A stretch of 64,000 bases of DNA, taken from Bacteroidota bacterium. GTDB taxonomy: Bacteria; Bacteroidota; Ignavibacteria; UBA10030; UBA6906. Made by a program: the position numbers and the translations under genes. The stretch is from contig JBJXHC010000037.1 of the NCBI GenBank assembly GCA_046160825.1, positions 4,799 through 68,798 of the forward strand, read 5' to 3'. Of the stretch, positions 10,562 through 23,580 are shown piece after piece. Numbering within the stretch: position 1 is the stretch's first letter; the number at the start of each line of letters is the position of its first letter. The notes below the pieces were generated by a model. The model ran no database searches. It was given only the letters and a program-made list of their open reading frames with translations, and was not told the origin of the DNA.

Positions 10562-11437
10562 GTGCAATTGAACATCCAGGATGTTAGCAAGACGTACAGC
10601 GGAGGCGTTCATGCGTTGCGTGGACTGAACCTGCAAGTTGCGCCGGGTATTCTTGGTCTCCTTGGTCCGAATGGCGCAGGCAAATCTTCGCTGATGCGTA
10701 TTCTCGCCACCATCACCAAACCATCTGCAGGTACAGTACACTGGGACGAGATTGATATCGCCATAAATCCGGATCCCTTGCGCGAGGTGCTCGGTTATCT
10801 GCCGCAGGATTTCGGAGTCTATCCCAATCTCAACGCGGTGGAATTCCTCGAGTATATGGCGGCAATCAAAGGGCTGGTTGGAACCCGGCAACGAATTGAT
10901 GAATTGCTTGAGGTGGTTAATCTCACCGATGTCCGCAAGCGGCCGCTCGGCGGGTATTCCGGGGGAATGAAACAGAGGATTGGAATAGCGCAGGCTTTAT
11001 TGAACAACCCGCGCCTGTTGATTGTTGATGAACCGACGGCCGGACTCGATCCCGAAGAACGCGTCCGGTTCCGGACGCTTCTCTCCGATCTTGCCGGTGA
11101 ACGCATTATTATTCTCTCCACACATATCGTGTCTGATGTTGAAGCAACTGCTTCGAATATCGCCATTGTCTCTCACGGACAATTGCTCGCTCATGGCTCG
11201 CCGGAATCGTTGCTGCAACTGGTTGAAGGACGTGTATGGGAGTGGACGACGCAAAGCGCCGATCTTCCGGCACTCAAACAACGGTACACAATCAGTAGTG
11301 CTGTGCGCAGGAGCGACGGGATCAAAGTCCGGGCAGTAGCAGATGCAAAACCAACAGCAGACGCTCACGCCGTTTCCCCCGGATTGGAAGATGCATACCT
11401 CTCCGTTATCGCCACCGCGCGGCGTATTGCCGCATGA
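10562..11437 (+). CDS. ABC transporter ATP-binding protein
   Basis: GTG start per track. Walker A 'GLLGPNGAGKSSLMRIL', signature 'YSGGMKQRIGIAQAL', Walker B 'LLIVDEPTAGLD'. ATGA overlap with the downstream permease at 11434. Confidence 0.85.
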   Translation: MQLNIQDVSKTYSGGVHALRGLNLQVAPGILGLLGPNGAGKSSLMRILATITKPSAGTVHWDEIDIAINPDPLREVLGYLPQDFGVYPNLNAVEFLEYMAAIKGLVGTRQRIDELLEVVNLTDVRKRPLGGYSGGMKQRIGIAQALLNNPRLLIVDEPTAGLDPEERVRFRTLLSDLAGERIIILSTHIVSDVEATASNIAIVSHGQLLAHGSPESLLQLVEGRVWEWTTQSADLPALKQRYTISSAVRRSDGIKVRAVADAKPTADAHAVSPGLEDAYLSVIATARRIAA

Positions 11438-12996
11438 CCGGACACACGATCTATCATATCGTTCGTGCGGACTTCCTTGAACGGACGCGCCGCTTCAGTT
11501 TTCTCGCCACGCTCGGTCTCGCGATCTATCTCGGCTTTCTTGTCAACAACGGGACGATTGGCGTCTCGCTGGGAAAATACCGGGGGGAATTCAACGGCGC
11601 GTGGGTGGGAGCCATGATGTCCATCGTCGCCACGTTCTTTCTTTCGTGGTTCGGATTCTTCCTGGTGAAGAACAGCGTGCAACGCGACCGATCGACCGGT
11701 GTTGGCCAGATCATTGCCACAACGCCACTCGGAAAGTTACCATATGTTGCCGGCAAGACACTGAGTAACTTCGCTGTTCTCTCCGTCATGGTCGTGATAC
11801 TCATCCTCGCCGCTATCCTGTTGCTGCTCCTCGGTGACGCCCGCTCTGATTTCAATCTGTGGCAATTCGTAGCGCCGTTTCTTCTCCTCACAATTCCCTC
11901 GCTCGCGGTTGTTGCCGCTGTTGCAGTGCTGTTTGAGTGCATCGCGTTCTTGCGTGGTGGAATGGGCAATGTGGTCTTCTTCTTTGGATGGATGTCTATT
12001 CTTGTTTCGGGCATGGAGACCAGGTCCGACGTCTTGGATATCTCCGGGCTGCTGACTGTCAGCGAAAGCATGAAGGAGGCGGCTAACGCAGCTTTTGCCG
12101 ACTACGGCGATGGTTTCGTGCTGGGGAGTTCAGGCCATCCGGTGGAGGGCACGTTCTTATGGAATGGCATCGCATGGACAGGAGATCTCCTTCTCCGCAG
12201 ACTCGGTTGGGTTGGAGTGGCATGCTGTGTCGTCGGACTTGCATCACTCGTATTTACCCGGTTTGATCCGTCACGCGAAAAACTCATTGCAAGATCCCGC
12301 CGTGCAAAGAAACCCAGAGGCAGTGACGAAGCAGAGGCGGTGTCGTCACCCGCCCCCGTTCATCACCTAAGGTTGACATCTCTGCCAACACGTTCCAGAT
12401 TTGGAGCAATTGTTCTGGCTGAACTTCGCTTGATGCTGAAGGGCCTGCCCTGGTGGCGGTATGCCGGTGCGATGATTCTCGTTGTCGTGTGCTGCACCGT
12501 TCCTCTCAACGAAGCCCGGCAGTTCGCTTTACCGTTCGCCTGGATATGGCCGTTGTTGCTCTGGTCGTCCATGGGAACACGGGAGGAACAATTCCGCACA
12601 CATGAACTGGTTCGGTCCGCACCGCGATCTCTACAGAGACAACTTCCAGCGTTGTTGCTTGCCGGCGTTATCGTTGCTGCGATGACAGGTTCGGGAATCC
12701 TTGTCCGTCTGCTTGCCGATGGTGACCTTCCGGGAATTATGATGTGGAGTGTCGGCGTAGCGTTCATCCCATCGCTTGCCCTGGCGTCAGGAGTGTGGAG
12801 CGGCAGCGCACGGTTGTTCGAGGTGCTGTACATGGCAATGTGGTACGTCGGACCCCTGAGTAAGGCGGCAGAATTGGATTTCATCGGTGCGTTCGGTGTG
12901 ACGAACATACCGTCGCTTCCCATCATTTATGGCTGCGCAACGATTGTACTCTGCGTGCTGGCATTCGTTGGCCGGAAACATAAGATGATGGGGTGA
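11434..12996 (+). CDS. Large ABC-2 family transporter permease (apparently duplicated or fused membrane domain)
   Basis: 520 aa, many hydrophobic segments. Translationally coupled to the ABC ATPase. A central soluble linker is rich in R/K/S. Confidence 0.7.
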   Translation: MTGHTIYHIVRADFLERTRRFSFLATLGLAIYLGFLVNNGTIGVSLGKYRGEFNGAWVGAMMSIVATFFLSWFGFFLVKNSVQRDRSTGVGQIIATTPLGKLPYVAGKTLSNFAVLSVMVVILILAAILLLLLGDARSDFNLWQFVAPFLLLTIPSLAVVAAVAVLFECIAFLRGGMGNVVFFFGWMSILVSGMETRSDVLDISGLLTVSESMKEAANAAFADYGDGFVLGSSGHPVEGTFLWNGIAWTGDLLLRRLGWVGVACCVVGLASLVFTRFDPSREKLIARSRRAKKPRGSDEAEAVSSPAPVHHLRLTSLPTRSRFGAIVLAELRLMLKGLPWWRYAGAMILVVVCCTVPLNEARQFALPFAWIWPLLLWSSMGTREEQFRTHELVRSAPRSLQRQLPALLLAGVIVAAMTGSGILVRLLADGDLPGIMMWSVGVAFIPSLALASGVWSGSARLFEVLYMAMWYVGPLSKAAELDFIGAFGVTNIPSLPIIYGCATIVLCVLAFVGRKHKMMG

Positions 12997-13218: not shown

Positions 13219-14724
13219 ATGTCGACGCCCCGATACAGTCCAAGTTACATTCTCATTCCCCTTCTCATTCTCTCAGTATTTGTAGCACTCGCAACTCTCA
13301 GTGAGAGCTTGATCCCGAACTTCGGCGTTCACTTCGTCGCTCAAGCCCGGGTAGTTGTCGCGTTGGCCGTTCAGGTTGGTATCTGGCTCTCTGCGGGCTG
13401 GATGCTTATACGGTGTATCAACTTCTTTCTCTGGGACAGGATTGTTGCACGTTCAATCGGTGGACGTGTCCCCGGTTTATTGAAGACCATCACCGCCTTT
13501 GCTATTGGCAGCATTGCAGTTGCCGGCGTTGTTGGTGTGGTGTTCGATCTTCCCGTCATGGGATTCTTTGCCACCTCCGGTGTTGTGGGTCTGGTGCTGG
13601 GCTTTGCACTACGCAACATGATCCAGGATGTTTTCACCGGTGTTGCGGTCAACCTCGATCGCTCATTCGCGATCAACGATTGGATTACCGTCCATTCAAA
13701 AGAGGGAGATGTGACCGGTCAGGTTACGGAAATCAACTGGCGCACAACATATATCAAGACGGAGAGCAACAGTATTGTAATTCTCCCGAATAGTTCGCTT
13801 GGACTCCTCACGGTGACCAACCACTGGAGCTCAGGTAAGGAATCGCGGTTCGAGGTCAAGTTCTGCCTGGATTTCTCCGTTCCCCCCAGGCGTGCTCAGC
13901 GTGTAATTGTCGGAGGTGTCAAGGCGATCGCGGGACGACACGGCATACTCGAAAGCCCTGAGCCTGCCGTGCTTCTTGGCGGGACGAGCGAGCTTGGCGT
14001 TGAGTACATCGCACGGTATTGGATCAAGGCGTGGGAAAACACTTCGCCAACTACCGCAAGACACCACGTTATTTCGAGTGTGATGGAGCATCTCCAGCAA
14101 TCCGGTCTTTCGCTTGCTTATCCCAAAGAGGACGTTTACTACGAGCGCATGCCGGCGCGCCAGCTTGATGCCGGCTCACTCACTGATCGCGAAAAGTTGC
14201 TGGCAACATTTCCACTATTCAAAATCCTCGGACCCGAAGATATTACATTCCTCGGCGGCCGGATGCGAGAGCATCACCATCGTAAGGGAGACGTGCTCTT
14301 CAAGAAGGGGGATGAAGGGAGTTCCATGCATGTTCTTTTTGAAGGCCTGCTGCATGTCCATGTCAATGGATCCTTGGATGAAAAGCATGTGGCACAATAC
14401 GAGCCCGGTCAGTTTTTCGGAGAGGTTTCCCTGCTTACCGGCGACGTCCGCGAGGCCACCCTCGTTGCAGCAACCGAAAGTGTTACGTACGAAATTACCA
14501 AAACCGATATGGAGTTGCTCTTTGAAAAACGCCCCAACCTCATCGAGGCACTCGCTGCCGCGTTGGTCGACAGACAAATGGATATCCACGAGACCGTGCA
14601 GAAGGCTCTCCACGCGGAAGTGAAGACCGAACAGCACCGCAGTCGCTCCAGCCAGATGCTTACCAAGATGAGGAGTATGTTCAGGGGCGTGTTCAAGTCG
14701 GAACCCGTCAACACTCCACAGTAG
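13219..14724 (+). CDS. MscS-family mechanosensitive channel fused to a C-terminal cyclic-nucleotide-binding domain
   Basis: MscS core 'DWITVHSKEGDVTGQVTEINWRTTYIKTESNSIVILPNSSL'. cNMP-binding domain 'FKILGPEDITFLGGRMREHHHRKGDVLFKKGDEGSSMHVLFEGLLHV...FGEVSLLTGDVREATLVAAT'. Confidence 0.8.
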   Translation: MSTPRYSPSYILIPLLILSVFVALATLSESLIPNFGVHFVAQARVVVALAVQVGIWLSAGWMLIRCINFFLWDRIVARSIGGRVPGLLKTITAFAIGSIAVAGVVGVVFDLPVMGFFATSGVVGLVLGFALRNMIQDVFTGVAVNLDRSFAINDWITVHSKEGDVTGQVTEINWRTTYIKTESNSIVILPNSSLGLLTVTNHWSSGKESRFEVKFCLDFSVPPRRAQRVIVGGVKAIAGRHGILESPEPAVLLGGTSELGVEYIARYWIKAWENTSPTTARHHVISSVMEHLQQSGLSLAYPKEDVYYERMPARQLDAGSLTDREKLLATFPLFKILGPEDITFLGGRMREHHHRKGDVLFKKGDEGSSMHVLFEGLLHVHVNGSLDEKHVAQYEPGQFFGEVSLLTGDVREATLVAATESVTYEITKTDMELLFEKRPNLIEALAAALVDRQMDIHETVQKALHAEVKTEQHRSRSSQMLTKMRSMFRGVFKSEPVNTPQ

Positions 14725-14827: not shown

Positions 14828-15811
14828 TTGAGTTTTTCGGATAATAATGGACAAACGGAGCTGATTTCAATGGTTGAGAACAAAACCGACGAACAAAAGC
14901 TCGCCAACTTCGAGGCAAAGATCAATCGCGGCGAGAAGATCGAACCCGGCGATTGGATGCCGGAGGATTATCGGAAGAACCTCATCCGCATGATGAGCCA
15001 GCATGCACACAGCGAGATTGTGGGACAGCTTCCTGAAGGGAAGTGGATTCCATTTGCTCCGGGATTCCGTCGCAAGCTCACGCTGGTTGCCAAGGTGCAG
15101 GACGAGGCCGGCCACGGCCAGCTTCTCTACGCAGCGGCGGAGACACTCGGCGTTACCCGCGAGCAAATGCTCGATGATCTCCTGAGCGGCAAAGCAAAGT
15201 ATGCGAATGTTTTTAATTACCCGACGCCAACATGGGCGGACGTTGGGGTGATCGGTTGGCTTGTGGATACCGCCGCGGTCATCAACCAGACAATGCTTGC
15301 ACAAAGCTCGTATGGTCCGTACGGACGCGCGATGAAGCGCATCTGTTATGAAGAGTCGTTCCACATCAAGCAGGGATATGATTCCGTCGTCGTGCTTGCG
15401 AAGGGAGTGCCTGCACAGAAGGCAATGGTGCAGGATGCCGTCAACCGCTGGTGGTACCCGACGCTCATGATGTCCGGTCCGCCGGAGAGCAGGGGACTTT
15501 CGACACACTCACAGCTTGCGATGCGATGGAAGATCAAGACGAAGACCAACGAGCAGGTGCGGCAGGAGTTTGTGGACCACATCGTGCCGCAGATTCGCGC
15601 GCTCGGCTTGGATGTGCCCGACAAGGATTGCCGTTACGACGAGAAGACCGGCCACTGGCACTACACCCAACCCGACTGGGAAGAACTCAAGCGCGTTGTT
15701 AACGGCGATGGGCCGTGCAACAAGGAGCGGTTGGAAGTTCGCCGCAAAGCGCATGATGATGGTCGGTGGGTGAGAGAGGCGCTATCGCAGCATGTTAACA
15801 GGTTGTCCTGA
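14828..15811 (+). CDS. paaA: 1,2-phenylacetyl-CoA epoxidase subunit A
   Basis: Ferritin-like di-iron oxygenase. '[51 protein letters not shown]' and '[11 protein letters not shown]' match PaaA. Confidence 0.9.
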
Positions 15812-15825
15812 TACGATTCTGAATT

Positions 15826-16035
15826 ATGCCCTACTACGATGATGATGGAAATGAACTCAATCCGGATCTTGTTCCCAAACCAACACTATGTGTTGCCTGC
15901 ATGAACGATGACACAGAGGATAAGCATGAAAGAATCCTATGCAACCTCACAAGACTGGATCAAAGTGGAGATACGGAATTCAAGTGTTACGCGTTTGTAC
16001 CGAAGCGTCCGGCATCCACGAGGGATTCATGGTGA
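15826..16035 (+). CDS. Small Cys-containing hypothetical protein (possible Zn-ribbon)
   Basis: 69-aa ORF 14 nt after the paaA stop. Acidic N-terminus, Cys pattern CxxC...C...C ('CVAC', 'ILC', 'KCY'). No similarity recognised. Confidence 0.35.
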   Translation: MPYYDDDGNELNPDLVPKPTLCVACMNDDTEDKHERILCNLTRLDQSGDTEFKCYAFVPKRPASTRDSW

Positions 16036-16067
16036 GTCGTTGCTGATGTAAGAGAGGACACTGTTTT

Positions 16068-16310
16068 GTGCCAACGATACTCAGAGTCAAAGATTATCGG
16101 TTCTTCTTTTTCAGTCGTGAGGGTAATGAACCCGCCCATATACACATTGAACAAGCAGAGCGCTATGCAAAGTTCTGGTTGAATCCGGTTCAGTTGGCGG
16201 CATCGGAGGGATTTCGCAGTAGTGAGATTGCAGAGTTGAGGAAGTTGGTTCAAGAAAATAGAACTCTATTTGAGGAGAGATGGAATGAGTACTTTGGCAG
16301 TAAGGGTTGA
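16068..16310 (+). CDS. DUF4160-family small protein (toxin-antitoxin-like pair member)
   Basis: GTG start. 'MPTILRVKDYRFFFFSREGNEPAHIHIE' matches the DUF4160 N-terminal signature (MPT..R..G.RF.FYS.E...PHIH). Confidence 0.7.
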   Translation: MPTILRVKDYRFFFFSREGNEPAHIHIEQAERYAKFWLNPVQLAASEGFRSSEIAELRKLVQENRTLFEERWNEYFGSKG

Positions 16311-16527
16311 ATCAAGAATTATCGACTTGTCCTTTACCTCGAACGCTCTCAAAGTCGTGCTTGCAGACGGAAGGGAAGTTTCTGCACCGTTGGAATGGTT
16401 TCCCCGGTTGCGCGATGCGAGTGAACAACAGAGAAAAAACTGGCGCCTGATTGGTAGCGGGATCGGCATTCACTGGGAGGATGTTGACGAGGATATTTCC
16501 GTGAATAGTCTTCTGGCAGCAAACTAG
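16285..16527 (+). CDS. DUF2442-family small protein (partner of DUF4160)
   Basis: Start at ATG 16285 ('MSTLAVRV...'), overlapping the DUF4160 gene by 26 nt. 'WFPRLRDASEQQRKNWRLIGSGIGIHWEDVDEDIS' matches the DUF2442 C-terminal motif. Confidence 0.7.
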   Translation: MSTLAVRVESRIIDLSFTSNALKVVLADGREVSAPLEWFPRLRDASEQQRKNWRLIGSGIGIHWEDVDEDISVNSLLAAN

Positions 16528-17120
16528 TATTTCCATAGTAAAATTCGATAGGCGAGCGCGACACTGGAGGTGACAGGTGAAAAATTTCGCTTCGTTATCA
16601 CCCGAATCAACGGCAACAAACAAGGCATTTGACCTATTATGGCTACAAAACACACAATGCCCACGTTCTTGCAAGGCGTGATAACCGCTTAAGCATATGA
16701 ACGCTGGTTACGTCGAAAGGCGCATGCTCATGTTATCCGTGATCGAAAGCGCGAACGAAAGTGTACTGTATCGAACTACAAAGAAGCGATTCATGCCGCT
16801 GTACTTCTGTCACAAGGAAAGGATGCTTACACGGGGGAGACCCTCCACTGGAAGCTCATTAGCACATACAAAAACGAAGAATCTAAAAGGGAAGACACGC
16901 GTACAAAACCGGTTTTGCAATGTTGCCAACAGTAGATCACGTAACAGCAGAAGCGTCCGAAGCGAGCTTCAAAATTTGCTCCTGGCGCACGAATGATGCC
17001 AAGAACGATATGTCACTCGAAATGTTTTTGAAGTTATGTCAATTAGTACTCAAGCACGCCGGATATGATGTGAAGAAGAGTGCGTAAGACCTTTGGCTCT
17101 GATAGTTAAACTCAAACGAC

Positions 17121-17408
17121 ATGTCCGACACCCAGTGGGAAACATACGAAGTCTTTCATCAGAGTAAGAAGGGCGACCCGCATCAGTCCGTTGGCACTGT
17201 GCATGCGCCCGACCCTGAGATGGCGCTGCAGATGGCGCGTGACCAGTTTGCACGACGGCTCAAGTGCGTCAGCTTGTGGGTGGTGAGAACGAAAGACATC
17301 ACCGCAACCAACTACCAGGACGAAGACTTCTTTGCACAGACCACCGATAAAAGCTATCGCGACCCCAAGGCATTCGACGCGCCGATGAAAGACCTCTCGC
17401 ATGACTGA
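17121..17408 (+). CDS. paaB: 1,2-phenylacetyl-CoA epoxidase subunit B
   Basis: 95 aa. 'WETYEVFHQSKKGDPHQSVGTVHAPDPEMALQMARDQFARRLKCVSLWVV' matches PaaB. Confidence 0.85.
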   Translation: MSDTQWETYEVFHQSKKGDPHQSVGTVHAPDPEMALQMARDQFARRLKCVSLWVVRTKDITATNYQDEDFFAQTTDKSYRDPKAFDAPMKDLSHD

Positions 17409-18171
17409 GCTATCAAAAGGCACTCCACGGGAACCGCTTCTTCGTTTCATTCTCGCAATGGCCGACGATGAATTGATGCTCGGTCACCGCAACGCCGAGT
17501 GGACCGGACACTCGCCCATCCTCGAAGAAGACATCGCGTTCTCCAACATCGCACAGGATGAGCTTGGGCATTCGCTCGTCTGGTACACGCTGCACGAGGA
17601 GTATACAGGAAAATCTCCCGACAGCATGGCGTTTGAACGCGCATGGGGTGACTTTACATGCTGCCGGTTTGTTGCGTACCCCAAAGGCGATTTCGCGTAC
17701 ACGGTTGTTCGGCAATACCTGTTTGATGAAGCCGAACAGGTGCGACTGGCGTCGTTTGCCAAAAGTTCGTTCACACCATTCAAAGATATCGCCGGCAAAC
17801 TGTTGCGCGAGGAAGCGTATCATCTCATGCACCTAAAGGGGCTGGTAATGCGACTCGGCGATGCAACTGAGGAAAGTCACCGACGTATGCAGGCCGCATT
17901 GGACGTTGCGTTTCCGCAAGCGCTCGGCATGTTCGAAAAGGTCGAAGGCGAAGACGAACTGGTCAAGGCAGGAATCATCGCGGGTAATTCAACGTTTCAA
18001 GAAGAGTGGATGAGCAGGGTAAAGCCCGTTCTGTTATCGGCTGGCCTCAAGGTACCATTGTCACCCCATGCCGATCTCGGCGGACGTCAGCGCAAGCATA
18101 CGGAACACTTGAAGCAACTGGTGGATGATTTACAGTCGGTGTATAGGATTGCGCCGGAGGCGAAGTGGTAA
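17401..18171 (+). CDS. paaC: 1,2-phenylacetyl-CoA epoxidase subunit C
   Basis: 'LLRFILAMADDELMLGHRNAEWTGHSPILEEDIAFSNIAQDELGHSLVWY' matches PaaC. 8-nt ATGACTGA overlap with paaB. Confidence 0.85.
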   Translation: MTELSKGTPREPLLRFILAMADDELMLGHRNAEWTGHSPILEEDIAFSNIAQDELGHSLVWYTLHEEYTGKSPDSMAFERAWGDFTCCRFVAYPKGDFAYTVVRQYLFDEAEQVRLASFAKSSFTPFKDIAGKLLREEAYHLMHLKGLVMRLGDATEESHRRMQAALDVAFPQALGMFEKVEGEDELVKAGIIAGNSTFQEEWMSRVKPVLLSAGLKVPLSPHADLGGRQRKHTEHLKQLVDDLQSVYRIAPEAKW

Positions 18172-18220
18172 AGCATTGTATAATGACGGGCTCTCCCCCT
18201 GTTGAGCTAGTCGACAAGAC

Positions 18221-19345
18221 ATGCGCGGACTCTGCCCAATCCACCCCTCTCTTCCTAAGAGAGGGGCCGGGCCTGCACGCCGGAGGGCGTTATGGCCCGC
18301 AGGCGGGGGAGAGTTTGCGGGGACATCTACAATGAGCCTTTCCCGGAATTCTCATCTGATGCATCTCGCCCGGGAAGTGTGTCGTGAGCTTCGCAAGAAC
18401 CAGACCCACGCCGAGCAAATCATGTGGGGTGGCCTCAGAGCAAATCGATTCCGGGAAAAGAATTTTCTCCGTCAACATCCAATCTTCGTAGATGCGAATG
18501 GTAGAGAGACATTCTACGTTGCTGATTTCTATTGCCACGAGCATCGTCTCGCCATTGAGCTTGATGGCCGGATCCATGAGCGCACCAAGGAACGCGATGA
18601 AGTAAGAACAATGGTCATCAACGATCAAGGCATTGAGGTTCTTCGTTTCAGAAATGAAGAAGTGGAGAAGGATTTCAATGGTGTTCTTGAGCGCCTTGCA
18701 GAAAAACTAAATTTGCCGCCACGGAAAGACCAGAACTCTCCCCTCACCCCCGCCTGCCTCAACGAAAACTCGGAGGCGGGCAGGCCTCCCTTAGAAGGGG
18801 AGGGGGATGTTGGGCTTGTGAACAATGTACCAACCTCCCCTCTCTTCCCAAGAGAGGGGCAGGGGGAGAGTTTCTTATCCACCATCTGGTCCGCACTCGC
18901 CAAGATCCAGGATCCGGAAATCCCCGTTCTCTCTCTTGTGGAAATGAAAATCATCCGCAGTGTAACGGTGACGAATGGCGAAGTGTCGGTCGTGATGTCG
19001 CCGACGTTCGTCGGGTGTCCGGCGCTGGACCATATGAAGGAGGAGATCCACGAGCGACTCAGGAATCTCGGTTGTGAGAAAGTGAAAATCGCCATGACGT
19101 TTTCGCCGCCATGGTCAACCGATATGTTGGACGAAGCGACCCGGGAAAAATTGCGCGTCTATGGTATCGCACCTCCGCCGAAATTCGATCCGGTACTCGT
19201 CGACAGTTTGAATATAACTGCTCACTGCCCCTTCTGCGGTTCCGGGCAGACCCGTATGCAAAGTCCATTCGGTGCAACGCTCTGCAAGCAAATGTATGTG
19301 TGCGAAAACTGCCGGCAGCCGTTTGAGCGCTTCAAGCCGGTATGA
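18221..19345 (+). CDS. paaD: In-frame fusion ORF: DUF559 (Vsr-like endonuclease fold) domain followed by 1,2-phenylacetyl-CoA epoxidase subunit D
   Basis: Residues ~38-165 are DUF559 ('MSLSRNSHLMHLAREVCRELRKNQTHAEQIMW...FYVADFYCHEHRLAIELDGRIHER...GIEVLRFRNEEV'). Residues ~205-374 are PaaD ('IWSALAKIQDPEIPVLSLVEMKII...FVGCPALDHM...CPFCGS...CENCRQPFERFK'). An in-frame GTG at 18818 could also initiate a stand-alone PaaD. Confidence 0.7.
   Translation: MRGLCPIHPSLPKRGAGPARRRALWPAGGGEFAGTSTMSLSRNSHLMHLAREVCRELRKNQTHAEQIMWGGLRANRFREKNFLRQHPIFVDANGRETFYVADFYCHEHRLAIELDGRIHERTKERDEVRTMVINDQGIEVLRFRNEEVEKDFNGVLERLAEKLNLPPRKDQNSPLTPACLNENSEAGRPPLEGEGDVGLVNNVPTSPLFPREGQGESFLSTIWSALAKIQDPEIPVLSLVEMKIIRSVTVTNGEVSVVMSPTFVGCPALDHMKEEIHERLRNLGCEKVKIAMTFSPPWSTDMLDEATREKLRVYGIAPPPKFDPVLVDSLNITAHCPFCGSGQTRMQSPFGATLCKQMYVCENCRQPFERFKPV
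18244..18316. repeat. Hairpin repeat copy 1 (CCCCTCTC-TTCCTAA-GAGAGGGG ... GGGGGAGAGTTT) upstream of the DUF559 domain
   Basis: Perfect 8-bp inverted repeat at 18244-18266. Motif GGGGGAGAGTTT at 18305-18316. A near-identical copy lies at 18837-18873. Confidence 0.6.
18837..18873. repeat. Hairpin repeat copy 2 (CCCCTCTC-TTCCCAA-GAGAGGGG CA GGGGGAGAGTTT) between the DUF559 domain and the PaaD domain
   Basis: Same 8-bp stem and 7-nt loop (one loop substitution) as copy 1, immediately followed by GGGGGAGAGTTT. Further imperfect hairpins lie just upstream at 18747-18783 and 18788-18806. Confidence 0.6.
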
Positions 19346-19397
19346 TGCGAACCTCAAAGATTCACCCACTGATCTCCCCAAAAACGTCCGGGACAAC

Positions 19398-20045
19398 ATG
19401 AACCCAATCCGACTGATCCATTTTGCATTTGGCGCACTTGTCTTCTTTGCTGCGGCTGGCGTCGCGCAGAAGAAGAACGACAAGACCCCACAGATCACCG
19501 CTGCCGATGTTGTTGGAACATGGTGGGTGAAGCACGACCTCGGAAGTATGGACGGCTACCAGATGGAGTCTGACGGTACACTACAACTTGTCAACCACTA
19601 CGTATGGTTTGGCAAAACGTGGGAACTGAAGAAGGATACCTTGACGTGGGTGATGTATGCAGAAGGCCATGAACCGGAAACAGCGCGCTATATCATCTCC
19701 GAGTTTTCACATTCCTCATTTATGCTCACCCCGCTTAGCAAAAACGCCGGAGGCGAAAAACTCTTTGTCCACCAGCATACCGGCAGAACCGAAGCTGATT
19801 CCTGGACAGGTCGGTGGACTGGTAACAAGGGTGCGTTCATGGACATCATTCCACAACGCGACGGATTCAAGATCGTTATCATCCGGGAAGGTGGTAAAAA
19901 AGGCGATGAATACAAGGGGATTGTGGACGGCAGCCGCATAATAATCAAAGGAATGAAGAACGAGGAGTATATCACCGCCGGTGTTGATCGTGACAAACGT
20001 AAGACTCTCAAAATAACGTCTGCGGGAGAATTCCACCGAGAGTGA
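19398..20045 (+). CDS. Secreted hypothetical protein
   Basis: Start taken at ATG 19398 ('MNPIRLIHFAFGALVFFAAAGVAQ', signal peptide). The track ORF begins inside paaD. No domain recognised. Confidence 0.55.
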   Translation: MNPIRLIHFAFGALVFFAAAGVAQKKNDKTPQITAADVVGTWWVKHDLGSMDGYQMESDGTLQLVNHYVWFGKTWELKKDTLTWVMYAEGHEPETARYIISEFSHSSFMLTPLSKNAGGEKLFVHQHTGRTEADSWTGRWTGNKGAFMDIIPQRDGFKIVIIREGGKKGDEYKGIVDGSRIIIKGMKNEEYITAGVDRDKRKTLKITSAGEFHRE

Positions 20046-20084: not shown

Positions 20085-20978
20085 TTATTTCGTATCCAGT
20101 ATTAGCGGCAGTCCATCCTTGCCCGCACCGATGATAATTACTTTTGTGTTCGGTGATTGCGCAATCTTCTCCGTTGCTTCAATTCCCTTCCATCGGAGTA
20201 ACTGCTCGCTGATTCCTCGTGCGACAATGTTTTGGAAATCAGAAATACCCTGGGCCTCGATGCGCTTTCGATCGGCCTCCTGTTTTTCCTTCGTGAGAAT
20301 GAACTCCATCCGCTGGCTTTCCTGATCCGCTTTCTGCTTCTGCTCGATTGCTTCGGTGAGTTGAGTTGGCAGTGCGACGTTTCGTATCGGTGTGGTTTCG
20401 ATGATTACGCCGCGATTGCCGACCATTTTCGCAAGCTCTTCCTGAATTGACTGGCCGAGGCGCTCGCGTTCTGTTGAGTACAGTGCGCTGGCCTGAAAGC
20501 TCGCCGCAACAGCACGACTGATGGAGCGAAACTGTGGGACGAGAATAATGTTTTCATAGTCGCCGCCGGCAACCGTCTGGTAGACACGAGCCGCAGAATC
20601 AGGGTTGAGCCTGTAGAGGACACTGATCTCCAATCCGATGGTGAGACCTTCACGCGAGAGCACCTGCATTTGTTCCTTGTGTTCTTTCGTTTGGATCGAG
20701 TACTTGACCACCTTTGCCATGGGATTCACCGGATTAACGCCCGGTGCATACGTGCGGGTCTCTACGACACCCAGAAAGTCGGCTATACCAACATGGCCAG
20801 CCGGGACAATAGTAAACGCTTGTGTCGCGGCAATTGCAGCAAAGAGAACAGCAAGTGCCCCCGCCAGCAGACTTGAAGAGCGGAACATTGGATTCCGCTC
20901 CACCTGGAATTTCTTCCGGGCGGCATTCCAGGCAACGATGCTGATGAGGGCCGCTATGAGACTGAGAATGAATACCAT
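20085..20978 (-). CDS. SPFH/band-7 (prohibitin/HflK-like) membrane protein
   Basis: N-terminal TM 'MVFILSLIAALISIVAWNAA'. SPFH core 'QVLSREGLTIGLEISVLYRLNPDSAARVYQTVAGGDYENIIL'. C-terminal coiled-coil rich in E/K/Q. Confidence 0.8.
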   Translation of the reverse strand: MVFILSLIAALISIVAWNAARKKFQVERNPMFRSSSLLAGALAVLFAAIAATQAFTIVPAGHVGIADFLGVVETRTYAPGVNPVNPMAKVVKYSIQTKEHKEQMQVLSREGLTIGLEISVLYRLNPDSAARVYQTVAGGDYENIILVPQFRSISRAVAASFQASALYSTERERLGQSIQEELAKMVGNRGVIIETTPIRNVALPTQLTEAIEQKQKADQESQRMEFILTKEKQEADRKRIEAQGISDFQNIVARGISEQLLRWKGIEATEKIAQSPNTKVIIIGAGKDGLPLILDTK

Positions 20979-22410: not shown

Positions 22411-23580
22411 TTACAGTTCCGTCAACGTATGCGTGCGTCCCTTGTTTGCCGTTTTCAAATATTCCATCAATGGTTGATAATACTCGAGCATTGCTCGAGC
22501 ACTGAGGCCTTCTCCCGTCTTTTCCTTCAGCACAACTCTCCAGTCTCTGCTCGCACCCGGACGCATGATGCTTTGCAGAAACGCTCCGACCTCTTTGTTG
22601 CCGGAGTAGTTGCAGTTGTTGGGATCCTGCTTGAGAATATTCTTTGCGATATGGCCGTGGAGTTGAAACTTCAGTATGCATGAAAGCGCGTAGTCATAGT
22701 ATTGTGCCGCATCGTCGTTGACGTATGTTTTGGTCGCGGCATCGCAGTACTCCACGCCCCGTGCCGTCGGCGGAACGACCCCCTGATACTTTTGCACGTA
22801 TTCCCACCAGCGCGCGTTGTATTGATCTTTCGGGAGGTTCTGTTCATACAAGTCGTGCTCGAAATGCGACATCGTACCGGTCGAGAAGGGGATGAAGACA
22901 AGGGAACGGCTGGAGAGCGCGTCGTTCAACAACCATTGCACCTGATCGATCTTCACGTCAGTTGAGAGCAAGCCAAGCTCCTCAAGGTATGCGCGCTGGG
23001 ACGAAGCAAGGTCCATCAGATCACCCATGCCCTCGTGGTAACTCCGGTTCGCTCCTTCACGAAGGACCAGCGGGACATCGGGCATCGAGTATTCGATGTA
23101 GTAATAAATATGACCCAGCTCGTGATGCGTTGTGCCGAACCAATCAGCGTTCGGGATAACACTCATCAGCGAACGGTAATCATCCTGTAGATCCAGATGC
23201 CAGGCAGATGCATAATTATTTTTCTTGCGGGGAGTGCCCACTGGAACCGGGTAAAGGTCCGATTTCTCCCAGAAATTCTGCTTCATGGCAGGAAAGCCGA
23301 TGCTCACATAGAACTTCTCGGCCTGTTGCACGATCCACTCCGCCGATTTGTCTTTGAAGAGTGCATCCAGATCGACCGCCCTGATAATGCCCGGCCAGTT
23401 TTGGCCCCAGCGGTTTGATGTCCAATGTGCCGGAAGCATTTCTGGAACAGGCTGATTGTATCGCTTTGCCAATTCATAGCGAGCCCATGTGTGAAGTTCG
23501 ATACACAGTGGCCGCAGTTCACGCACAAGTTGATCCATCAACGCCATCATCTCCTGTGTCGTCATGCCGTAATCGGCCAC
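22411..23580 (-). CDS. M2-family (angiotensin-converting-enzyme-like) zinc peptidase, N-terminally truncated (catalytic half only)
   Basis: 'TTHHELGHIYYYIEYS' matches the ACE HHEMGHIQY zinc motif. 'EGANRSYHEGMGD' holds the third Zn ligand. The C-terminal 'YNARWWEYVQKYQGVVPP...' aligns to the ACE C-terminus. The ORF is only 389 aa (bacterial and animal M2 peptidases are ~600 aa). Only ~137 bp separate its start from the next gene. Confidence 0.6.
   Translation of the reverse strand: MADYGMTTQEMMALMDQLVRELRPLCIELHTWARYELAKRYNQPVPEMLPAHWTSNRWGQNWPGIIRAVDLDALFKDKSAEWIVQQAEKFYVSIGFPAMKQNFWEKSDLYPVPVGTPRKKNNYASAWHLDLQDDYRSLMSVIPNADWFGTTHHELGHIYYYIEYSMPDVPLVLREGANRSYHEGMGDLMDLASSQRAYLEELGLLSTDVKIDQVQWLLNDALSSRSLVFIPFSTGTMSHFEHDLYEQNLPKDQYNARWWEYVQKYQGVVPPTARGVEYCDAATKTYVNDDAAQYYDYALSCILKFQLHGHIAKNILKQDPNNCNYSGNKEVGAFLQSIMRPGASRDWRVVLKEKTGEGLSARAMLEYYQPLMEYLKTANKGRTHTLTEL

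Follow-up and report, generated by a model that had tools for sequence, protein, structure and literature searches.

A stand-alone paaABCD cluster of the Ignavibacteria type with two unrelated insertions, one of them a DUF559 gene segment fused in frame to paaD

The 64-kb stretch of contig JBJXHC010000037.1 analysed here (the window) carries genes for PaaA, PaaB, PaaC and PaaD, the proteins of a putative phenylacetyl-CoA epoxidase, with additional DNA at two of the gene junctions: a block between paaA and paaB, referred to as insert 1, and, between paaC and paaD, a segment encoding a DUF559 domain that is joined in frame to PaaD and lies between palindromic elements (Table 1). The four deduced proteins exceeded the respective NCBIfam equivalog cut-offs (280 bits for TIGR02156, 85.45 bits for TIGR02157, 133 bits for TIGR02158 and 108 bits for TIGR02159), PaaD doing so solely as the C-terminal part of the fusion. 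The alignment of PaaA with its E. coli counterpart (3PVR; E=8e-116) spanned the full length and showed the metal-ligand motifs HSE, DEAGH and EESFH to be conserved. The paaA gene of the window probably starts at the ATG at 14870 and not at the TTG that opens the open reading frame (ORF), which yields a protein of 313 aa, compared with 310–316 aa in relatives. In the extended frame 18221–19345, the DUF559 domain covers aa 51–163 and PaaD aa 229–374. All four oxygenase ORFs are intact. Pfam scans, which took in essentially all ORFs of at least 150 aa in the window, revealed no PaaE-, PaaK-, PaaG- or PaaZ-type domains, as had been stated in an earlier annotation made from the sequence alone (the original prediction), and no PaaE reductase domains (FAD/NAD-binding and 2Fe-2S) were encoded. 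The rest of the window is ordinary chromosome, with dnaB, coaBC, gmk, and genes for M16 peptidases and Por-secretion-tail proteins.

Table 1. Features of the paaABCD cluster and of its two interrupted junctions (positions in the window)
Feature	Position	Strand	Remarks
paaA	14870..15811	+	Catalytic di-iron subunit; TIGR02156, 469 bits; ORF opens with TTG at 14828
Insert 1	about 15790..17111 (~1.32 kb)		Low GC, lineage-specific; all cargo co-oriented with the operon
4-Cys mini-protein	15826..16035	+	69 aa; four near-invariant Cys; 15 nt after the paaA stop
DUF4160, putative toxin	16068..16310	+	PF13711, E=8.6e-16
DUF2442, putative antitoxin	16285..16527	+	PF10387, E=1.4e-20; ORF opens with TTG at 16270, likely start ATG 16285; overlaps toxin gene
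Pseudogene	about 16639..17087	+	In-frame stop at 16690–16692; frameshift near 16905–16925
paaB	17121..17408	+	TIGR02157, 92.1 bits
paaC	17401..18171	+	TIGR02158, 241 bits; 8-nt overlap with paaB
Relic ORF	18165..18335	+	56 aa; GTG at native paaD start position; reads through the upstream palindromic element
Upstream palindromic element	18236..18325	+	31-nt repeat at 18241–18271; 23-nt palindrome at 18244–18266; fold z=-2.1
DUF559 segment	18332..18709	+	Vsr-like PD-(D/E)xK nuclease domain; PF04480, E=4.5e-27; N-terminal part of the fusion ORF
Downstream compound palindromic element (linker)	18734..18872	+	Outer stem AACTCTCCCC…GGGGGAGAGTT around four hairpins; second 31-nt repeat at 18834–18864
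PaaD core	18881..19345	+	FeS_assembly_P and PaaD zinc ribbon; TIGR02159, 174.5 bits; PF01883, PF23451; C-terminal part of the fusion ORF 18332–19345

A scan of a genome collection returned 80 loci (designated below by L numbers, and proteins by P numbers), among which PaaA-PaaB spacing was measured by tblastn in 55 distinct Ignavibacteria-type loci, and neighbouring genes were surveyed in about 58. Homologues of the window PaaA number in the hundreds at 78–90% identity, and those with a name belong to metagenome-assembled genomes (MAGs) of Ignavibacteria, Ignavibacteriales or Bacteroidota. Relatives with long contigs have the four paa genes packed tightly together and overlapping, with a PaaD of 160–164 aa and no paaE; the flanking genes vary between genomes. 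In particular, the called paaA and paaB genes of L001–L003 overlap by 1–4 nt and paaB and paaC by 4–8 nt, which bears out the compact coupling that the original prediction had taken as canonical; the coordinates also agree with its 8-nt overlap of paaB and paaC in the window. The gap between PaaA and PaaB matches did not exceed 192 nt in any of the 55 loci, compared with 1338 nt in the window. Probes for PaaE, enoyl-CoA hydratase (ECH), PaaI and PaaJ, all taken from the canonical cluster L085, detected no such gene within their reach of ~8 kb around paaABCD in any Ignavibacteria-type locus; paaE was found only in Bacteroidia-type loci, and ECH only in Planctomycete- and Anaerolineae-type loci. 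The recurrent neighbours of the Ignavibacteria-type clusters were instead housekeeping genes, with Sua5/TsaC, PurE, PurK and phosphoenolpyruvate carboxykinase present in approximately 26 of the 58 loci. On the basis of these spacing, probe and neighbour surveys, a stand-alone paaABCD that lacks both paaE and the pathway genes is a property of the clade, ancestral and not a sign of decay, and the lack of paaE, paaK, paaG and paaZ, which had been regarded as a peculiarity of this cluster, is shared by all the Ignavibacteria-type loci probed. Previous studies describe paaABCD as the invariant operon core, from which paaE is in some cases separated or missing altogether, and also report partial configurations of the epoxidase (PMC2653477, PMC13186573). 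No paper describing paaABCD in Ignavibacteria was found in the literature searched. As a separate observation, the Planctomycete-type loci L064, L066 and L069–L072 carry paaD and an ECH gene upstream of paaA-paaB-paaC.

Divergence of the window genes from those of L001, whose PaaA is 90% identical, was used to estimate nonsynonymous (dN) and synonymous (dS) substitution. The values were dN 0.062 and dS 1.62 for paaA (dN/dS 0.04) and dN 0.076 and dS 2.46 for paaB (dN/dS 0.03), while paaC and paaD showed dN values of 0.15 and 0.10, respectively, with dS saturated for both. The paa genes are thus under strong purifying selection, and this low dN against a high or saturated dS indicates that the operon is not in decay. 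The original prediction had suggested an operon in early decay, i.e., one that had lost paaE and the pathway, and whose non-functional paaABCD had then been colonised and broken up. We consider such a history very improbable: although two insertions, a pseudogene within the cluster, a lost paaA-paaB coupling, a 64-kb window devoid of other paa genes and the need for PaaE in vitro (PMC9493321) would all be in line with it, the four ORFs are intact and constrained, PaaA is conserved at 80–90% identity across dozens of Ignavibacteria, the paaE-less layout is found throughout the clade, the sole pseudogene is cargo of insert 1 and not a paa gene, and the frame of the DUF559 fusion, described below as old and under selection, has been kept open through saturating synonymous divergence. 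The accompanying view that selfish or accessory DNA had entered a cluster with four intact oxygenase ORFs holds for both interruptions.

The junctions of insert 1 were placed by DNA alignment with L001, L007 and L002, in which homology ended at 15783–15792 and restarted at 17115–17121, so that the junctions lie at ~15789 and ~17112. The G+C content of the insert was 0.458, compared with 0.574 for paaA and 0.559 for paaB. The gap between the two genes amounts to 1309 nt and comprises the ORF of the 4-Cys mini-protein, the DUF4160 and DUF2442 genes and 593 nt without an intact ORF, in agreement with the ~1.3 kb separation, the Cys ORF and the DUF4160/DUF2442 pair that had been reported for it; of the stretch previously given as 590 bp of non-coding DNA, the length and the lack of an intact ORF stand, but it contains a pseudogene and is not non-coding. 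Insert 1 was missing from the 55 distinct relatives and also from L213, and is therefore unique to the window genome among those examined. The original prediction would have been refuted by an ancestral gene order conserved across the clade; as the putative toxin-antitoxin (TA) pair was absent from 55 of 55 relatives, its reading of the arrangement as an insertion stands. Insert 1 is recent.

The insertion fell within the variable 3' end of paaA, which codes for the tail of the protein, 10–25 nt before the paaB ATG, and consequently the last ~8 codons of PaaA (…SQHVNRLS*) are new sequence, forming a tail unlike those of L001, L007 and L002, the native overlap of paaA and paaB is lost, and the target motif AACGACATG upstream of paaB is still present. 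The insertion would thereby have broken the translational coupling between paaA and paaB and supplied PaaA with an eight-residue tail. Since the cargo genes all point in the direction of the operon and no intrinsic terminator was predicted on the plus strand of the cluster, paaBCD may still be transcribed, either by read-through or from a promoter within the cargo. Scans of the cluster with sigma-70 and with TAnnTTTG, which we take to be the Bacteroidetes-type -7 motif, were uninformative.

With regard to the cargo, the 4-Cys mini-protein has 81 homologues of 60–70 aa at 52–75% identity, in which C22, C25, C39 and C54 are conserved and which occur in Ignavibacteria, Rhodothermales and others; this pattern suggests that the protein probably binds metal. 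It matched no entry of Pfam, NCBIfam or PADLOC, and its AlphaFold2 model, with a predicted local distance difference test (pLDDT) score of 74, matched no fold in the PDB. Its homologues were found in three unrelated contexts, never adjoining paa genes, and in one case beside a cluster of TA and immunity genes. A further explanation of insert 1 holds that its cargo was recruited by the oxygenase, for instance with the 4-Cys mini-protein as a rubredoxin-like carrier that replaces PaaE. Such recruitment appears extremely unlikely, as the protein is missing from every other paaABCD cluster examined by tblastn, its homologues keep company with other genes, and neither a rubredoxin or ferredoxin Pfam match nor a fold match was obtained, even if a co-oriented gene 15 nt after the paaA stop, with a CxxC…C…C pattern and in a cluster without a reductase, might invite this interpretation. 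The role of a PaaE surrogate was rejected for this protein on genomic context.

The combination of DUF4160 and DUF2442 is that of dhiTA, a type II TA system known from Dickeya dadantii (PMC8198452), and a homologous pair raises plasmid persistence in Thermus (PMC8198452, PMC12724237, PMC12065111). The TA label that the original prediction had given to these genes is therefore justified, and the pair is predicted to act as a dhiTA-type system. No PADLOC defence-system model fitted its proteins. Post-segregational killing by the pair would help to hold insert 1 in place. The pseudogene downstream of it, once its translation was repaired, matched intact hypothetical proteins of plasmids by tblastn, with 97% of its length aligned at 59% identity (E=5e-42). 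On a Paraburkholderia plasmid, the gene for an intact relative of 178 aa immediately follows the brxL gene of a BREX system; no Pfam family was found for these proteins, and no PADLOC defence model for the intact relative. At the boundaries of insert 1, we found merely an imperfect GTTAAC / GTTAAAC pair. An integron cassette was also considered and rejected: there is no RYYYAAC on the plus strand of 15700–17200, and the three GTTRRRY sites in this interval correspond to the background frequency.

The same junction is occupied differently in a close relative. In L214 (1–2720), whose PaaB is 92% identical to that of the window and which also carries DUF559-PaaD, paaB is immediately preceded by genes for a HindIII-like restriction enzyme and an N6/N4 methyltransferase, no paaA is present within 2.7 kb or elsewhere on the contig, and similarity to the window at the DNA level sets in precisely at 17120. 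A common origin of the two inserts was ruled out, since they share no similarity apart from paaB. The junction is intact in L213, which is syntenic with the window downstream (NAGPA, peptidase M2), and the contig of L011 ends at the junction (…REALAAK), that of L005 28 nt earlier; the ends of these two independent MAG contigs may reflect strain heterogeneity at the site. Because a restriction-modification pair occurs at the same nucleotide in so close a relative, the paaA|paaB junction looks like a preferred landing site and, taken together, these loci suggest that several related populations either acquired addiction-type modules of different kinds at this point or are heterogeneous there.

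The contig ends bear equally on whether insert 1 is an assembly artefact, produced in a MAG by chimeric joining or by the collapse of strain variants. The window does match MAG-derived records, exact look-ups of its PaaA and of the fusion protein P0121 yielded no entry of the contig index, no second assembly spans the insert, and L005, whose paaA is 91% identical at the DNA level, and L011 both break at or next to the junction. Contig breaks are, however, equally expected where insert-present and insert-absent alleles coexist, and a chimera needs two precise joins, whereas here paaA and paaB flank the insert in the right order and orientation, with the residual target …AACGACATG kept, and L214 independently has foreign DNA abutting paaB at the same nucleotide. 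We thus judge an artefact to be very unlikely.

The interruption between paaC and paaD differs from insert 1 in age and in form. In unfused relatives, the paaD ATG overlaps the paaC stop (ATGGTGA or ATGGTAA; junctions of the ATGGTGA type in L007, L002, L010 and L037). In the window, a cassette of ~0.7 kb occupies this position, in which the stop of the relic ORF (TGA) overlaps the ATG of the DUF559 segment (ATGA). A peptide of the relic ORF, SPLFLREG.GLHA..G...PQAGES, recurs in the linker of L001. The original prediction had described a DUF559 insertion in paaD; DUF559 is indeed joined to PaaD, but it does not lie inside paaD, as it sits between paaC and paaD, with its own start at ATG 18332, and is fused in frame to the N-terminus of PaaD. 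The cassette would have displaced the native paaD start, so that DUF559, a translated palindromic linker and PaaD became one ORF. A start-stop relay, from the paaC stop to the relic GTG and then from the relic TGA to the DUF559 ATG, might express this ORF. The N-terminal extension may be tolerated because PaaD lies outside the catalytic complex: PaaD was not part of the isolated complex and had no effect in vitro but was essential in vivo, and is probably a maturation factor (PMC9493321). In other lineages, PaaD has further N-terminal fusion partners, namely a NUDIX-like domain and PaaC (P0412, P0378). With regard to the same junction, we also observed that it is enlarged by 430–1500 nt in L009, L014, L017, L020, L026, L027, L028, L031, L041, L042 and L055, where it contains an SPFH/Band-7 gene, small lipoprotein genes (one or two, with weak similarity to TonB Plug) or a combination of the two, and no DUF559; the paaC|paaD junction is thus variable across the Ignavibacteria clade.

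NCBI annotates the fusion product (P0121, 328 aa) simply as PaaD. Four further proteins, P0122–P0125, have the same DUF559-linker-PaaD architecture at 61–82% identity to that of the window. The DUF559 domain matched 3HRL (E=1e-10) and retained the motif D…ExDG…H…RD…RF.NxE, whose residues are invariant in five of five fusions. Compared with L001, DUF559 showed dN 0.13 and dS ~3, with differences of 0.10, 0.12 and 0.54 at the three codon positions, while the linker showed dN 0.66 and dS 0.70. The five linkers measure 58, 47, 61, 51 and 46 aa, with the frame open in all of them and all length differences being multiples of three. The DUF559 fusion is therefore old, present in at least five lineages and under purifying selection. 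Because DUF559 is constrained while the linker evolves with dN≈dS and yet stays open, the comparison points to a functional nuclease domain, presumably with nuclease activity, to a linker peptide free of constraint and to selection on the continuity of the frame, as would be expected if PaaD is now translated only from the DUF559 start.

An alternative is that DUF559 and PaaD are made as separate proteins, the open frame being a by-product of a palindrome poor in stops, with PaaD translated from an internal start and DUF559 either terminating or silent. The neutrality of the linker agrees with this, its very stable RNA structure could stall ribosomes, and an in-frame GTG and ATG are available at …SLVEMK…. 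These candidate starts, however, belong to the invariant DPEIPVLSLVEMK core, and initiation there would shorten the domain; the palindrome has a TAA in one of its three frames, so that openness is not automatic; and the frame runs open through 46–61 codons in five lineages, with differences that are all multiples of three, and is also open in the independent fusions of other phyla described below. We consider separate proteins rather unlikely, and favor a single fusion ORF.

The two copies of the 31-nt repeat lie 593 nt apart and bracket DUF559, where zero occurrences are expected by chance. The RNA fold of 18730–18875 reached -81.9 kcal/mol (z=-5.3). Neither a tRNA scan nor an Rfam scan of the window gave a match, and the palindromic elements fit no described RNA family. 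The 23-nt palindrome of the window is present in at least 120 metagenome contigs, with at least 160 exact copies, and a wider consensus reads AACTC(A/T)CCCC – palindrome – GGGG(G)TGAGTT. Most copies are solo and apparently intergenic, with a median open frame of 87 aa across the copy; a few lie 29–47 codons into long ORFs, or in the middle of an ORF. A DUF559 gene was found at most 400 nt from the palindrome in 22 of 120 loci among the matches listed, with exact copies on both sides in six, whereas ~1.09 Mb of control loci contained no DUF559 gene. The other bracketed DUF559 cassettes have a spacing of 552–622 nt, near that of the window. In some contigs, the palindromes form tandem arrays of a 68-nt unit that is 97% identical between copies; L119 (1–688) has ten copies and L154 (6275–6540) four, and the array of L154 abuts the start of a DUF559 gene, at the 3' end of which a further unit begins. 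A CRISPR interpretation of these arrays was ruled out by the 97% identical units and the lack of unique spacers.

Fusions of DUF559 to PaaD also occur elsewhere. P0127, from L085, belongs to a canonical paaABC-(DUF559-PaaD)-paaE cluster with different palindromes between the two domains, and P0160/P0293 and P0291 are further fusions, each with its own hairpin-type linker peptide. The DUF559 domains of these proteins are only ~33–39% identical to that of the window; the DUF559-PaaD fusion has arisen repeatedly, with independent cases in other phyla. Furthermore, short hairpin-type linkers of the form 'SPL…G.GG' connect DUF559, as the N-terminal part, with an amino-acid kinase and with a HisF-like protein (P0192, P0194, P0186, P0181), and the kinase domain of P0194 is interrupted by an extra in-frame segment, 'SSSPLEHGGT', that is missing from P0192. 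P0126 of L213 has a hairpin-derived N-terminal extension of PaaD and no DUF559, and is sister to the DUF559-bearing P0125. Lineages with a plain paaD (L007, L002) are interspersed with DUF559-bearing ones in a short PaaD-core tree that has no bootstrap support, a pattern consistent with repeated gain and loss of DUF559 at one site.

From these observations, we tentatively propose that DUF559 genes bracketed by palindromes of the type AACTC(A/T)CCCC…CCCCTCTCTTCCNAAGAGAGGGG…GGGGTGAGTT may represent an undescribed class of selfish elements based on a Vsr-like nuclease, a possibility that we would not call probable. Such elements would spread their palindromes as solo copies, insert at host start codons and persist as in-frame chimeras, with paaC|paaD as a recurrent target across phyla. 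The start codons affected would be those of housekeeping genes, for example paaD and the genes for an amino-acid kinase and a HisF-like protein; by capturing the translation start of the host gene, the element would ensure that the host protein is made only as an in-frame chimera. No description of DUF559 genes with flanking palindromes was found in the literature searched.

The reading that we consider likely is that the window carries a functional stand-alone paaABCD, typical of Ignavibacteria-type Bacteroidota, which tolerates two unrelated inter-cistronic insertions. Several points weigh against it. An unlinked paaE or a complete pathway elsewhere in the genome is possible, as is a role of the oxygenase other than in phenylacetate metabolism. 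The window is MAG-derived, no second assembly was found to span insert 1, and misassembly or population heterogeneity is possible where the contig of the nearest strain stops just before the insert. An integrase, a transposase, a target-site duplication and a terminal inverted repeat are absent at insert 1. Co-transcription across 1.3 kb and translation through a linker of -82 kcal/mol are both inferred from sequence. The tree that underlies gain and loss of DUF559 is short and lacks bootstrap support, and the AlphaFold2 model of the fusion (pLDDT 47, five sequences) was too poor to show two independent domains and was not used.

Around the cluster, the gene upstream of paaA (13219–14724) encodes an MscS-type channel, as previously noted, with the correction that it also carries a C-terminal cyclic-nucleotide-binding domain, which showed weak PADLOC matches to Pycsar/TIR effector models. 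This gene is extra with respect to the nearest strain, L005, where an ABC-2 permease gene (the counterpart of window 11434–12996) is just 87 bp from paaA. Downstream of paaD, the ORF at 19272–20045 has no Pfam match and a signal-peptide-like N-terminus from an internal Met at ~19401; a 42%-identical homologue at the same position in L007 marks it as a conserved neighbour in some close relatives. It is followed by an SPFH gene on the strand opposite to the paa cluster (20085–20978) and by a peptidase M2 ORF on the minus strand (22411–23580; 389 aa), which covers profile positions 191–577 of 581. The syntenic peptidase M2 of L213 is called at 604 aa, and the window copy may be N-terminally truncated or have its start mis-set.

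The paaE-less paaABCD is accordingly the conserved norm in Ignavibacteria-type bacteria and not a wreck, so that annotation pipelines and pathway surveys in which PaaA and PaaC serve to indicate phenylacetate degradation may over-call this capacity in the clade. The role of the conserved oxygenase in these bacteria, and its reductant, become a testable question. The operon junctions appear to serve as landing sites for addiction modules, namely a TA pair in the window and, at the identical nucleotide of L214, a restriction-modification pair, and the paaC|paaD junction offers a multiply replicated case of a nuclease cassette that would survive because its frame continues into that of an essential neighbour. 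Should the DUF559-palindrome unit prove mobile, the few proteins so far connected with palindromic repeats of bacteria would gain a nuclease family, and the many odd 'DUF559 fusion' proteins in sequence databases would be explained.

Compared with the PaaABC(D)E epoxidase operon of E. coli and Pseudomonas, PaaA–PaaD are orthologous and the relatives of the window keep the same A-B-C-D order with overlapping genes. Neither here nor in the ~58 related loci, however, is a paaE or a paaK, G, Z, F, H, I or J gene nearby; the neighbours are housekeeping genes, two junctions are interrupted in the window, and the epoxidation of phenylacetyl-CoA with NADPH and O2 is putative. The TA pair shares with dhiTA of Dickeya dadantii 3937 the Pfam pair, the small, overlapping and co-oriented ORFs and the toxin gene in first position, but is located in the junction of a catabolic operon and not on a plasmid or island, and its TA activity is putative.

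The DUF559 domain has its fold and the PD-(D/E)xK residues in common with Vsr/VsrA-type nucleases and with the DUF559 protein 3HRL. No DNA methyltransferase domain that might represent a DNA cytosine methyltransferase partner was found in the ORFs of the window; Caulobacter VsrA has an unlinked partner (PMC12907096), and the same is possible for the window protein. Unlike the Vsr nuclease genes, the DUF559 gene is bracketed by palindromes and fused to an unrelated protein. The Vsr/DUF559 fold also includes the EDxHD homing endonucleases (PMC3424549, PMC9403480), and a small nuclease gene between conserved genes, possibly sporadic among close relatives at one identical site and recurring at paaC|paaD in distant phyla, resembles homing endonuclease genes, including that of the EDxHD enzyme I-Bth0305I. 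However, no intron or intein is involved, the flanking palindromes also exist as many solo copies, unlike in classical homing endonuclease genes, and the nuclease is putative.

Overall, the palindrome-DUF559 pattern resembles REP/RAYT systems, homing endonuclease genes and Rickettsia palindromic elements, while departing from the defining criteria of each. As in REP/RAYT systems (REPtrons), a short palindrome that is present many times as a solo copy, mostly between genes, and also as tandem arrays brackets one small nuclease-type gene; this gene, however, encodes a PD-(D/E)xK DUF559 nuclease and not an IS200/IS605-like Y1 (HUH) transposase. Rickettsia palindromic elements, reportedly described by Ogata and coworkers in 2000, are said to be palindromic selfish DNA that lies in frame in protein genes and is translated as an extra peptide. 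The N-terminal extension of PaaD in P0126 and the insert in the amino-acid kinase P0194 are alike in this respect, but the elements described here belong to another sequence family and another host range, and are linked to a nuclease gene.

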